DNA of 64,000 bases from Octopus vulgaris (Eukaryota), in assembly GCA_951406725.2 (NCBI GenBank), contig OX597826.1:48422001-48486000 (forward strand). Reading direction: 5' to 3'. The stretch's first letter is position 1; each line of letters begins with the position of its first letter. Below the pieces are notes generated by a model. That model did no database searches, was not told the DNA's origin, and saw only the letters and a list, made by a program, of their open reading frames with translations. The translations under genes and the position numbers were made by a program. This document shows positions 4,679-61,312 of the stretch, piece after piece.

Positions 4679-4723
4679 ATTGGTACTCATGAGTTTCAAG
4701 CACGATGCTAGTCATCAGCCATT
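4679..4723 (-). ncRNA. Minimal type I hammerhead ribozyme (Penelope pLTR-type)
   Basis: Minus strand: aatgg CTGATGA ctagcatcgtgctt GAA ACTCATGAGT A ccaat. Palindromic stem III, GUA site, stem I tgg/cca. Confidence 0.75.
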
Positions 4724-4741
4724 TTGAATTTGAAAATTTTA

Positions 4742-4786
4742 AATGACTGATGACTAGCATCATGCTTGAAACTTGAGAGTACCAAT
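4742..4786 (+). ncRNA. Mirror hammerhead copy, partly mutated
   Basis: aatga CTGATGA ctagcatcatgctt GAA ACTTGAGAGT A ccaat. Confidence 0.6.
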
Positions 4787-10403: not shown

Positions 10404-10423
10404 TCTGTTTATTTCCTCGTGTT

Positions 10424-10460
10424 CCTTTCTGTTGAAGTGTGTAGGTTCGAAACATAAAAG
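10424..10460 (+). ncRNA. Degenerate minimal hammerhead in a short cassette (10404-10550) ending at (TA)n
   Basis: cttt CTGTTGA a gtgt-gtag-gttc GAAAC ATA aaag. Same layout as 29459 and 61616, with decay. Confidence 0.45.
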
Positions 10461-10587
10461 ACTTCCTCACCTTCCTGAACATCAAACTAATACACCTGCT
10501 TGTTGATTATACACCTGTCTTTGTCTTTTGTTTTTCTGTAAATTTCAACTATATATATGTGTGTGTGTATGTGTGTGTGTGAGTGTT

Positions 10588-16367: not shown

Positions 16368-17707
16368 CAAAGTGTCCATAAATTCTCCTTACAATTTAAA
16401 AATTTTATTACGAAGGTAGTTGACAAGATATCTTAACCAGATTTGTTTTATTGTAATAATTGTTTATTAAAGTTTTTTTAACTGTTATTTAATAGACCTC
16501 AATATGGGCACCATTAGTTGCACGAAGCACATTAAGATGGTACTCGATTTCTTGCCATGTTCGATGTAGGATAGCCTCATCAACGGTGGCAATGGCATTA
16601 CGAATCCTTTGCTTCAAGTCAGCAATGTCCTGTATCTTTGTTTGATACATGATATCTTTTACATAACCCCATAAAATGAAGTCCAAGCGAGTGATATCTG
16701 GTGAACGTGGTGGCCATGGTATTGGCCCATCCCTTCCAATCAATCAGTCTGGAAATGTTTGATTGAGGAACAGACAAACATGCTGTCCCCAATGTGGTAG
16801 TGCACCATCTTGCTGGAAAATGATGGTTGGTCGTAAATCAATCAGTTGTGGTGCCACATATTCGGTCAGAAGGTCAAGGTTAACATCTGCAGTAATTGTT
16901 GCCTCATTGAAGAAAAGTGAACCAATTATTCGATTGCACATAATTCCACACCACACATTCACTTTTGGACTATCCTGTTGAAGCACCCTAGTCACATGTG
17001 GGTGTTCTGATCCCCAGATTCTCCTATTGTGTCTGTTTAATTTCCCTGAAACATGAAAAGTCACCTCATCACTAAACAAACTCGCTTGAGGAATGCTTCA
17101 TCCTCAGAAATGCGTTCCAGCATATTGAGTGCAAACTCTTTTCGTTTTGGCTTGTCCTTTGGCTCAAGTGCCTGTAACAGTTGCACTTTATAAGCGTACA
17201 ACCATAAGTTCTTGTGGAGGACCTTGTGCACTGTTGAACATTGTAGTTGCAACTGTCTGGCAGCAGTGCGGATGGATTTCGTAGGAGAACCAGCAAAGGC
17301 TTTTGAAACATGATCCATGCTTTCATCAGATGTTTTTGGTCACCCTCTCCTCCCTTTATCCAACACTGTCCCTGCCTCCATAAATTTCTTGTGCCATGCA
17401 CAAATTGAAGGACGTGATAGTGGATCTTTTCTATATGTAGTTCTGTAGTTTTGTTGTATCTGGACATCTGATTTTGTCTCAATAAACCAAGATAAACATT
17501 GTGCCTTTTCATGAGGAGTAGCCATTTTATAGGGGTTCAGTGAACCAGTTCCCTTCCGTGAACAGAGAATTTGAAACACAAAAATTTAATATCAATAAAA
17601 ACTTTAATAAACAATTATTGAAATAAAATAAATCTGGTTAAGACATCTCATCAACTGCCCTTGTAATAATTTTCTTTAAATTGTAGATTGACTTTATGGA
17701 CACTCTG
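16368..17707 (-). mobile_element. Tc1/mariner DNA transposon, DD41D (rosa-type), ~1340 bp with ~115 bp TIRs and TA TSD
   Basis: ta|caaagtgtccataaa...ttattaaagtttt matches the reverse complement of aaaactttaataa...tttatggacactctg|ta. Confidence 0.9.
16489..17525 (-). pseudogene. Disrupted DD41D transposase
   Basis: MATPHEK... HTH region, FSDE, FQQDGA and WPPRSPDITRLD. 41 codons lie between the 2nd and 3rd Asp, counting one in-frame stop. Frameshifts present. Confidence 0.88.
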
Positions 17708-29162: not shown

Positions 29163-29760
29163 TCTTTTATTTGTTTCAGCCTTTTGACTGTGGCCATGCT
29201 GGAGTACCACCTTAAAGGGTTTTTTGGTCGAAGAAATCAACCCCAGGGCTTATTCATTGCGAGCCTAGTACTTATTCTATTAGTGTAAACACATAAACAC
29301 ACCAACATCAGTTGTCAAGTAATGGCAGGTGGGGGGGGGGGGAACAAACACAGATACAAAGAGATACACAGACACACACACACATATATATACTGCATGT
29401 GTATCATCAGCGATTTTCTTTCTCTGTCTTCCCTTCCTTGGACCTTTCCTTTTTCTATGTTTCTGATGAAGAGCTCTGCTCGAAACATTAAATCCTCCTT
29501 CTTTCTTTGCTTTCTTGAGCGTCCAATAACACTATATTTGTTCCACGTCCTTGCATTGTTGTGTTTTCTCTTCGTTCATGTTTGGATTAACTATATATAT
29601 ATATATATGACAGGCTTCTTTCTTTTCAATCTACCAAATCCACTCACAAGGCTTTGGTCAGCCTGAGGCTATAGTAGAGAACACTTGCCCAAGATGCCAC
29701 ACAAAGGGACTGAACCCAGAACCATGTGGTTGGGAAGCAAGCATCTTACTACACAGCCAT
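29163..29760 (-). mobile_element. SINE family A with a hammerhead cassette (29405-29605) inserted in its internal microsatellite
   Basis: Tail and head halves flank a 200-bp insert homologous to 61520-61705. Confidence 0.8.
29459..29493 (+). ncRNA. Minimal hammerhead (CpG-decayed stem III)
   Basis: gttt CTGATGA a gagc-tct-gctc GAAAC ATT aaat. The homologue at 61616 has GAAAC GTT aaac. Confidence 0.7.
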
Positions 29761-32358: not shown

Positions 32359-32444
32359 ATTTCCTACATATGTTTCGAAGGCTGCAAAGTCCCTAATTCG
32401 GATTGAATAAGGAGTCCATTTTGCAGCTTTCTCTTCAGGAAAAT
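32359..32444 (-). ncRNA. Type I hammerhead ribozyme, intact core
   Basis: Minus strand: attttc CTGAAGA gaaagctgcaaa...tttgcagccttc GAA ACATATGT A ggaaat. Confidence 0.85.
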
Positions 32445-32503
32445 CCAGGAACTTAATTCTCCAACAAAATGCACAACATTTTGTTGGAGAATTAAGTTCC
32501 TGG

Positions 32504-32578
32504 ATTTTCCTGAAGAGAAAGCTGCAAAATGGACTCCGAATTAGGGACTTTGCAGCCTTCGAAACATATGTAGAAAAT
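32504..32578 (+). ncRNA. Type I hammerhead ribozyme, intact core
   Basis: attttc CTGAAGA gaaagctgcaaa...tttgcagccttc GAA ACATATGT A gaaaat. 6-bp stem I, 12-bp stem II with one mismatch, palindromic stem III, GUA site. Confidence 0.88.
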
Positions 32579-45435: not shown

Positions 45436-46020
45436 TGCCGTTTTTTCAACAGCTTGAACTAAAAGTCAGAGGGGAATGGGATAAACTACTTATATTAAAT
45501 TGCTATAAAAGCAGGTAGTAATTTTATCTTGTCCTTATTCATAGTGCAAGTTTTGAAGAGTGCATTTCGATTTTAACAGCTATTTTTTTCAAAGCTATAT
45601 TGGAAGTAACAAAGGAGCATATTTGGCATATTTTGCTTTATGAGTTCAATAAAGACAACAACGCAACGGAAAGTACAAGAAATATTAATGCAGTATATGG
45701 GGATTGGACAATAAGCGTAAGGCAGTGTCAATGGTGGTTCCAGAAATTCCGAGCCATAAACTACAGCCTAGAAGACGAGTCTCATCCTGAAAGATCTGTA
45801 GAACTCGACAAGGACATCCTGAAAACCCTGTTGGAACAAAATCTCATCGTAACTGTTGAGGAACTAGCAGAGAAGCTTGGATTTGGTCATTCAACCATTC
45901 ATTGAGACCTGTGTGCTATCGGAAAAGTCAGCAAATTGGGTCAATGGGTTCCTCACGAACTTTCCGAGTCTAATTGCATGCAGAGAGTGAATGTATGCTT
46001 TTCTTTGCTGTCACATCTCA
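45436..46020 (+). pseudogene. Mariner transposon 5' fragment with the transposase N-terminal HTH region (~45600-46020)
   Basis: EHIWHILLYEFNKDNNATESTRNINAVYGDWTISVRQCQWWFQKFR...TVEELAEKLGFGHSTIH*...IGKVSKLGQWVPHEL (WVPHEL motif). Truncated before the catalytic domain. Confidence 0.85.
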
Positions 46021-46944: not shown

Positions 46945-47172
46945 ATATAATATAATATAAATAATATATAAATATATTCATATATACATACATATGCGTA
47001 CATACCTACATATATATGTATATATACATGCATATATAGGTACAAGACATCAAAAAAAAAAACGTAGACAGAATAAGAAACAATAACAAAAAACAAAAAC
47101 ATAGAAAATGAACCTTTTTCAAACAACGAGAAAAACAAACAGAGAAATGGGACATGCAACATTAAGAGCATT

Positions 47173-47233
47173 CCCTTCATCAGTTGTCCTGTGTTTTATC
47201 TACTCTGCCTTTCGAAGGTAAGGACAAGACGTG
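47173..47233 (-). ncRNA. Candidate hammerhead with non-canonical strand order (copy 1; cassette 47038-47313)
   Basis: Minus strand: cacGTC ttgtcct tacc ttc GAA AGGCA [15 nt] aggacaa CTGATGA a ggg. Perfect 7-bp stem I; stem III decayed. Confidence 0.5.
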
Positions 47234-47326
47234 ACTTCATTAAAACAGTACAGTTCTTCTCACAAAGCAAGTTAAATAAAATTTGGGATTTTTTACGGAG
47301 GGTGAAAGTGGTAATATATATATATA

Positions 47327-60561: not shown

Positions 60562-60617
<56 letters not shown>

Positions 60618-60756
60618 ATACACATGCATGTATGGGTACAGGACGTCACCAACGGTGGAAATAACATGAATTACGTAAACAAATGAGGGGAAAACGCATG
60701 AAATACGCGAAGAACGAGAAAAAATGGAAAACAAGACGAGTTAACACAGAGAAAGG

Positions 60757-60819
60757 ACCCTTTATCAGTTGTCGACTGTCTATCAACTCCTCATTTCGAG
60801 CATTCAACGACAATATGAG
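60757..60819 (-). ncRNA. Candidate hammerhead with non-canonical strand order (copy 2; cassette 60633-61125)
   Basis: Minus strand: CTCAT A ttgtcg ttgaat gctc GAA ATGAG [15 nt] cgacaa CTGATAA a gggt. Stem III CTCAT/ATGAG 5 bp, stem I 6 bp, stem II gctc/gggt. Confidence 0.55.
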
Positions 60820-61312
60820 TCTTCAAAGACATTTGCTCCCATAAATTCTAAAAAATAATTAGGATTTATGGAATGTCAAAGCTAGGAACAAAAAAAAAAG
60901 AATGACAGTGCAGACATACAAGCAAACCTAACGAAAACAAACATGGTGGATCACTAGACCAGAACGTGAGGAAAATAGTGAACGCTGGGAGATACGTCTT
61001 TTTTTTGAAAAGCGAAAAATAGAAGAGAGAGAGAAAAAAAACGCCCGTTCGTTTAAATGTCCGTGCAGAGAAAGAAAATGGACGATGGTCACGTGTGAAC
61101 AAAGAGAAAAAGAGAAAGAGGGAGGATATATATATATATTATATATATATTATTTATTATTTAATTGAACGCGACGCATCCATTTCCAAGTGTGTATATA
61201 TATATATATATATATATACAGACCTATATGCGTGTGTGAATGTATGCACTTAATATGGCCGTGGTTTCTTATATCTGTTTAAATGTCTATTTGATGAGCA
61301 CTGTTGTTTATA

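Follow-up and report, generated by a model that had tools for sequence, protein, structure and literature searches.

A candidate reverse-cycle hammerhead ribozyme, probably opened between A9 and G10.1, near the 3' end of Penelope-like elements of Octopus vulgaris

The window analyzed here, a stretch of 64,000 nucleotides from the Octopus vulgaris genome (2.8 Gb, rich in microsatellites), carries on its minus strand a 5'-truncated copy of a non-coding, Penelope-like repeat, the span of which (60617-61105) is covered at ~80% by blastn matches to other copies and the family of which exhibits a fixed 3' end and ragged 5' ends. An earlier note had recognized within this copy, at 60819-60757, a hammerhead core with its strands in the reverse cycle NUH, GAAA, CUGANGA (blocks S, G and C), and every block that it listed is indeed present at its place. 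Comparison with the family, as described below, suggests that the ribozyme motif is wider, spanning ~60877 to 60756, and yields the following features:

60617-61105, minus strand: copy of the non-coding Penelope-like repeat, subfamily A, 5'-truncated; its 3' end runs into (TA)n/(CA)n
60872-60877, minus strand: 5' strand of the closing helix P0; two substitutions in the window copy, giving one mismatch and one G-U
60839-60871, minus strand: hairpin Pa, between P0 and G10.1, which would stack on P0
60834-60838, minus strand: probable 5' strand of stem II (G10.1-10.5), in place of the strand first proposed; it lies upstream of the predicted cut
60827-60832, minus strand: 5' strand of P4, a helix that joins stems II and I at their distal ends; the window copy has one substitution here
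60814-60819, minus strand: 5' strand of stem III and U16.1-H17 (AUA triplet), letters CTCAT-A; predicted cut 60814/60813
60808-60813, minus strand: 5' strand of stem I (5-6 bp in 8/8 consensi)
60798-60802, minus strand: 3' strand of stem II (11.5-C11.1), pairing with 60834-60838
60790-60797, minus strand: G12-A13-A14-A15.1 and 3' strand of stem III (GAAA 60797-60794; stem III strand 60793-60790)
60776-60781, minus strand: 3' strand of P4, from consensus comparison
60762-60774, minus strand: 3' strand of stem I (60774-60769) and C3-A9 core (60768-60762), with G8A at 60763
60756-60761, minus strand: 3' strand of P0, including the strand that the earlier note assigned to stem II
61152-61190, plus strand: part of the element's tail region in inverted orientation, immediately 5' of the window copy (by eye, against the tails of copies L004, L020 and L027)
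47173-47302, minus strand: second ribozyme copy, subfamily B, GUC triplet; predicted cut 47228/47227

The window copy is probably a dead member of its family. Owing to G8A, it lacks the complete hammerhead core (CUGANGA, GAAA, NUH, G10.1-C11.1); this change is private to the window copy, the majority sequence of the family being CUGAUGA, and breaks the C3-G8 pair, while P0 and P4 are also damaged relative to the consensus, so that the copy is probably inactive, as had been suspected from G8A. Single changes of C3 or G8 (C3G, G8C) abolish PLE hammerhead activity according to the available part of PMC11167929. Folded alone, the window copy does no better than shuffles (z 0.56). The copy at 47173-47302 has an intact core and damaged stems II and III. 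A search of the whole window against Rfam gave, among the 150 of 547 matches listed, microsatellite noise, and focused stretches gave no hammerhead match; this null is uninformative because the conventional minimal motif at +29463 was missed as well.

The stretch is one copy of a dispersed repeat with 3,141 first-look candidates (40 scored, at 88-100%), and the cassette 47038-47313 represents a second subfamily, B, with 2,334 first-look candidates. The pattern GUC, CGAAAC, CUGAUGAAG, in that order only, has 1,342 matches in the genome versus 3 for the reversed control; a looser block-order pattern has 1,861 matches versus 325 (overlaps counted). With their S-G-C order, such copies would be missed by descriptors for types I-III, as the earlier note had foreseen. 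Eight subfamilies were compared, of which A, B and G were gathered by DNA similarity, and C, D, E, H and J from hits of patterns that required the core words and AG after A9. Among 503 distinct anchor hits, 294 were assigned (A 89, B 38, C 18, D 4, E 2, G 95, H 23, J 25) and 209, mostly noise, were omitted. Copies at L338 (1480-1570), L349, L353 and L363 belong to more divergent, shallowly sampled subfamilies with the same block order. In a metagenome scan with a similar word pattern, none of the 113 matches forms stems I and III.

Stems I and III were examined with only GAAA and CUGANGA as anchors, choosing the offset that maximizes the two stems. In 8/8 consensi the best-pairing offset falls, unprompted, on UA, UC or UU, in agreement with the proposed placement of the predicted cut at 60814/60813, and affords 5-6 Watson-Crick pairs for stem I and 4-5 for stem III. 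Over six independent subfamilies, stem I is Watson-Crick paired at 30/30 positions, a count reached by 2/720 strand permutations, and stem III at 24/24, reached by 1/720; since copies were chosen for intactness and subfamilies are related, these counts should not be read as probabilities. Double changes are found, across 16 distinct natural copies, in 6/6 pairs of stem I and 4/5 of stem III, stem III being 100% paired and GAAA invariant in this set. Both stems thus stand as originally drawn. U16.1, C11.1, GAAA, CUGA and A9 are invariant across subfamilies, H17 is never G, N7 is U or A depending on the subfamily, and the complete core (CUGANGA, GAAA, NUH with H not G, G10.1-C11.1) is found in 8/8 consensi. 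Together with the covariation of stems I, II and III around this core, stem II using the upstream partner described below, these findings identify the family as a hammerhead by core and covariation; it is of none of the types I-III, whose block cycle C-G-S differs from the S-G-C order found here, and it is not strictly of type SGC.

The stem II originally drawn (gctc/gggt) fared differently. Only its core-adjacent G-C is constant across the consensi, and over the six subfamilies it comprises 11 Watson-Crick pairs, a total reached by 414/720 permutations. When the 3' strand of stem II is instead slid along the whole consensi, A, D, E, G, H and J offer it a partner of 5-6 bp located 22-29 nt upstream of the cut; 5-6 Watson-Crick pairs can be formed there in 8/8 consensi, although a purine run inside the core pairs equally well in B and C. 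The upstream stem II (60838-60834 in the window) has 30/30 pairs over six independent subfamilies (6/720 permutations). On 17 copies of A-E, to which these cell counts were limited because all-subfamily MAFFT alignments mis-register P0, P4 and G, H, J, N, 95.3% of cells are paired in the upstream stem, with no G-U type, double changes in 3/5 pairs and 0/500 shuffles, versus 91.2%, largely G-U, and double changes in 1/4 pairs for the stem after the core. The covariation check proposed for the cassettes 60633-61125 and 47038-47313 thus bears out stems I and III and speaks against stem II as drawn, in favor of its upstream partner. In subfamilies B-G, the 3' strand of stem II could instead pair perfectly with the run G8-A9-A-G-G, which would switch the core off; this option is absent from A, H and J.

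The bases following A9 pair further upstream, forming P0, with 4-7 bp in 8/8 consensi (6 bp in that of subfamily A); its total of 24 pairs is reached by 24/720 permutations, with the first two pairs biased by the search patterns. Between P0 and G10.1 lies a segment of 23-43 nt, Pa, in 8/8 consensi (by eye in B and C). In the ViennaRNA predictions for copies of A, D and G, Pa folds as a hairpin that runs on from P0; in D the upstream stem II is predicted as well. P0 is likewise predicted in an intact A copy (z -4.09), which is the only one of 7 single-sequence folds to beat all 200 shuffles under a fold model without pseudoknots. P4 has 4-8 bp as computed for A, D, E, H and J, and by eye 8 bp in B, 10 in C and 5 in G; its permutation total (21; 1/720) was set aside because the anchors of B and C fell on the in-core tie and the P4 of G went unrecognized. 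Two earlier models, namely a plain SGC fold with the stem II of the earlier note and a fold with a fourth helix downstream of the core (101/5,040 permutations), were dropped once the published Naiad ends revealed the upstream strand.

With the 5' strand of stem II lying upstream and the bases after A9 engaged in P0, the chain appears to be opened between A9 and G10.1. PLE types usually have an extra base between 9 and 10.1 (PMC4209133, in the part available), which makes this a plausible site for an opening. The order S-G-C itself is known as type SGC, which has been validated by experiment, alongside the other reverse-cycle forms CSG and GCS (Eckert 2023, PMC10085705, as far as its available text goes), so that the strand order is not new, contrary to what the earlier note had supposed. 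Block C of that scheme comprises CUGANGA with both adjacent strands, and the known alignments contain at most 1-2 inserted bases there, according to the same text. Our motif shares with the SGC and CSG ribozymes of the parts available the reverse cycle S-G-C, a pseudoknotted core, a short link between stems I and II, and a helix joining their other sides (here P4), but differs from SGC in having a stem II strand that is separated from block C and placed upstream, P0 and Pa being inserted at A9/G10.1. Hence, it can probably be viewed as an SGC/CSG hammerhead that has been circularly permuted by an opening at A9/G10.1, which places it outside the six permutations of that scheme; in this respect the suggestion of an undescribed topology stands.

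It could instead be argued that the motif is a plain type SGC, with a stem II of one G-C and several G-U pairs made from the bases after CUGANGA, and with the upstream helices as alternative or inhibitory structures, perhaps a switch. The S, G, C order and the joining helix P4 are as in type SGC, and a G-U-rich stem II after A9 can still form in A-G, which counts against the core-opened fold. However, an intact block C, with the stem II strand 1-2 nt 3' of CUGANGA, is not what we find (11 versus 30/30 pairs): only 1-2 pairs would form in H and J and, by eye, two in the copies of the octopus Naiad considered below and none in coral and hydrozoan Naiads, the Watson-Crick count is at permutation level (414/720), and it is with the P0 strand that the bases following A9 covary. 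We thus regard a plain type SGC as unlikely, while keeping it in mind.

Equally, the helices might be real but form between two RNAs or tandem units, as a strand-swapped dimer of the kind suggested for minimal Penelope hammerheads, so that no such monomer would exist. A dimeric mode of action is assumed for metazoan PLE hammerheads (PMC4209133, available part), partial tandems are common in the A-J repeat, and palindromic strands occur in stem III of B and E and in P4 of H. Yet stem III, with 4-5 bp plus an A-U, is not minimal, most strands are non-palindromic, the linkers would permit a monomer (at least 10 nt from stem III to stem I in all eight consensi), and the SGC/CSG ribozymes described in the available text of PMC10085705 cleave in cis as monomers. 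Hence, an obligate dimer appears decidedly improbable, and we favor the monomeric, core-opened fold.

The A-J repeat consists of non-coding units of ~700-850 nt, mostly dispersed or in partial tandem, with a 3' end fixed in AT-rich sequence and ragged 5' ends. Insertion marks of PLEs are 5' truncation, partial tandems, an inverted 5' piece, a tail of 30-40 nt and a microsatellite target (PMC8557442, from the portion available), and the repeat exhibits these Penelope-like features: partial tandems (L137, L133, L123, L059), inverted pieces (L003, L009 and window positions 61152-61190), a short tail and (TA)n targets. The piece at 61152-61190 is, as judged from its letters, a Penelope-type insertion mark. 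The unit starts at L137, L059, L003 and L357 show a short tail motif shared by subfamilies, followed by GTAAG and a long pyrimidine tract; this splice donor-like GTAAG with its pyrimidine tract recalls the intron in the Penelope pseudo-LTR.

The same marks ((TA)n targets, 5' truncation, partial tandems, inverted pieces, 30-40 nt tail) have been described for Naiads, which were reported to be without a canonical hammerhead (Craig et al. 2021, PMC8557442, in the available part); unlike Naiads, A-J are non-coding, and the Naiad authors proposed no fold in the material available. They did, however, flag eight families, including the octopus Naiad_Ovul, as HHR_half_core, and the 3' ends of HHR_half_core families, as far as that source provides them, exhibit the S-G-C order, with the strand before GAAA pairing upstream. 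A 21-nt word of the Naiad_Ovul ribozyme has 643 genome matches (at most 1 mismatch) versus 0 for the control. An RT motif has 21 genome matches, one of them followed on the same strand, 1,446 nt downstream, by a ribozyme; at this locus (L545), frameshifted RT pieces (RVT_1 E 1.3e-5, under the curated cut-off, with weak maturase and telomerase RT matches) are followed by a 3' UTR, the ribozyme and (TA)n, so that a broken RT, its N-terminal part missing, lies upstream of the core-opened fold. By eye, the majority sequence of 14 Naiad copies forms stem I (6 bp), upstream stem II (6 bp), stem III (4 bp), P4 (5 bp) and the Pa hairpin, whereas its P0 is weak, at 3 bp.

The last 330-400 nt of 53/55 published Naiad consensi were read by eye. 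The core-opened form was recognized in seven (Ovul, Obim, Amil, Aacu, Anas, 3_Chem and Bfor, from octopus, coral, hydrozoan and ctenophore), with a stem I of just 2 bp in Bfor; coral and hydrozoan Naiads have a P0 of 6-7 bp in different letters and no stem II after A9. Type CSG was recognized by eye in six nematode Naiads (1-3_Nbra, Hcon, Hpol and Asuum; PMC8557442 File S5), and the 3' end of the spider Naiad_Smim is by eye of type SGC (same file). The latter has a 10-bp stem III, an 8-bp stem I, a long insertion before stem II, a 15-bp interaction helix and U at 11.1. In the other consensi among the 53, including those of bivalves and hemichordates, no motif was recognized in the last 330-400 nt and may lie beyond.

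From the shared fold and target we consider it reasonably probable that A-J are mobilized by a Naiad. In the flanks examined there is no ORF with N-terminal GIY-YIG and C-terminal RT, as in autonomous Naiads, upstream of subfamilies A-J and no direct sequence link between A-J and a Naiad ORF, and among the matches listed for tblastn of GIY-YIG PLE ORFs against the loci, no ORF leads into A-J. GIY-YIG fragments beside L026 and L065 were set aside as neighboring insertions of other PLEs, 30 loci of that protein family being without such a ribozyme in the ~1.5 kb downstream of the ORF. An abundant PLE family (L091-L120; 12,503 first-look candidates) has a C-terminal GIY-YIG and a zinc finger-like linker, with no hammerhead in the ~1.5 kb downstream.

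The 5' ends of genomic copies were then related to the predicted cut, using copies picked by an anchor ~65 nt downstream of it (the first 100 of 499 matches for subfamily G, and the first 92 of 211 for A). The interval -3..+17 was chosen after viewing G and applied unchanged to A. In G, 28/86 at-risk copies end in this interval versus 1/58 in the 21 nt upstream and 5/91 downstream (Fisher 1e-6 and 4e-6), giving a step from 1 end in -24..-4 to 28 in -3..+17. In A, 21/78 end there (one of the 21 being an internal deletion) versus 4/57 upstream and 3/81 downstream (Fisher 0.003 and 4e-5); the local sequence near the cut differs between A and G. The mode of the ends is at +7 to +10, not 0, and AT microhomology hotspots elsewhere reach 10/46 (G) and 9/35 (A), the value for A almost equaling its cut-site rate. 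The simplest reading of the pile-up is that the RT ran off a cleaved template and that a few bases were then trimmed in the joining step, and its occurrence in two subfamilies would be an indirect sign of cleavage in vivo. At L253 (~1420-1450), a head-to-head inverted insertion was seen whose inverted arm ends no more than ~2 nt from the predicted cut.

A competing reading of this pile-up holds that a hammerhead-derived fold was kept as a non-catalytic site for protein binding or stalling, with the 5' ends arising from RT stalling or microhomology. It draws on the other 5'-end hotspots, on the absence of a precedent for the A9/G10.1 break in the literature examined, and on an anole PLE for which, in the available part of PMC11167929, HHR mutants were without effect on insertion in vitro, cleavage being dispensable for this one element, and the HHR needed protein to cleave. 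Against it, all helices have changed in sequence, yet the catalytic residues stay the same and the NUH rule holds; moreover, the ends in G rise abruptly (1 versus 28), and this step lies 5' of where stalling at the paired 3' strands would be expected. A non-catalytic role thus seems distinctly unlikely to us. Finally, a chance juxtaposition of short words in AT-rich repeat DNA, to which the poor folding of the window copy and its lack of an Rfam hammerhead match might point, is refuted at the family level by the 1,342 versus 3 matches, the family-wide covariation and the 0/113 metagenome matches forming stems I and III.

We therefore return to the core-opened ribozyme. It is likely, on the comparative evidence, that a reverse-cycle hammerhead opened between A9 and G10.1 and predicted to be self-cleaving resides near the 3' end of these Penelope-like elements, with the order, from 5' to 3', P0, Pa, stem II (from G10.1 on), P4, [III-UH-I], [II-GAAA-III], P4, [I-CUGANGA], P0. 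P0 and Pa would stack into one helix, the nick in which keeps A9 and G10.1 side by side and replaces the backbone link; P4 would stand in for the contact between loops I and II, and the chemistry would be the ordinary G12/G8 hammerhead reaction after NUH. The ribozyme might cut tandem read-through transcripts into units of ~700-850 nt, which a Penelope-type RT would copy from an internal AT-rich site, such internal initiation being shown for an anole PLE (PMC11167929, part available); copies from a cut template would then end just 3' of the cut.

With the minimal type I hammerheads of PLEs and retrozymes, as the accessible parts of PMC4209133, PMC7229834 and bioRxiv 10.64898/2026.07.22.740005 present them, the family shares its location in non-coding PLE repeats, numerous subfamilies bearing compensatory changes and an invariant G10.1-C11.1. 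Those ribozymes, however, have type I order, a palindromic stem III needing dimers and, in retrozymes, monomers of ~170-450 nt, in contrast to the reverse cycle, full stem III and ~700-850 nt units of A-J, which hence do not exhibit the type I hammerhead and short tandem monomers of non-LTR retrozymes; the retrozyme papers (PMC7229834 and bioRxiv 10.64898/2026.07.22.740005) treat type I only, in their accessible parts. The pistol-like PK hammerhead (PMC11300833, accessible part) likewise combines hammerhead chemistry, here predicted, with a pseudoknotted scaffold, but unlike A-J it has A9 and G10.1 covalently continuous and a conventional block order. Perreault 2011, in the part accessible, reports core insertions elsewhere and a working 1-bp stem II, none being of the A9/G10.1 kind. 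The SGC/CSG examples in the accessible part of PMC10085705 are from metatranscriptomes and metagenomes, none being from genomes of known organisms, and 'octopus' is absent from the text and supplement to that extent, whereas our motif belongs to an animal retroelement with more than 1,000 copies. A literature search covering few subscription papers returned no SGC/CSG in animals, no hammerhead fold of Naiads and no opening at A9/G10.1. The core-opened form may thus be a previously undescribed hammerhead variant, a prior description being possible.

Taking these lines together, it is tempting, and in our estimation fairly likely to be correct, to propose that nature uses a seventh way of wiring the hammerhead: an active, monomeric form whose backbone is interrupted at A9/G10.1 and bridged by a nicked coaxial helix, and which, with SGC and CSG, would constitute the missing ribozyme of Naiads across ctenophores, cnidarians, cephalopods, spiders and nematodes. 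Animal genomes would then abound in non-circularly permuted forms, and the genomic 5' ends would record their cut in vivo. If true, this would break the published assumption that CUGANGA and its stem II strand are inseparable, provide structural biologists with a natural core having an interrupted A9-G10.1 link, and explain why Naiads appear to lack hammerheads. Non-circular permutations, otherwise a rarity among metatranscriptome contigs, would number in the thousands in animal genomes, all unseen by current descriptors. The natural SGC, CSG and core-opened forms in one retroelement clade would offer a series for studying how permutation evolves, and the 5'-end footprint would make the role of PLE hammerheads in transposition testable from genome sequence alone.

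The window also contains, at 29457-29495 and 10423-10462 (both plus strand), conventional minimal type I PLE-like hammerhead motifs with an extra base after A9; 24 distinct minimal type I motifs were seen in the fetched loci, many with U at core position 6. Long near-perfect inverted repeats at 32430-32518 and 4680-4784 are probably MITE-like or inverted insertions, and the open frames at 45522-45902 (plus strand) and 16747-17097 (minus strand) resemble what we take to be fragments of mariner/Tc1 transposases.
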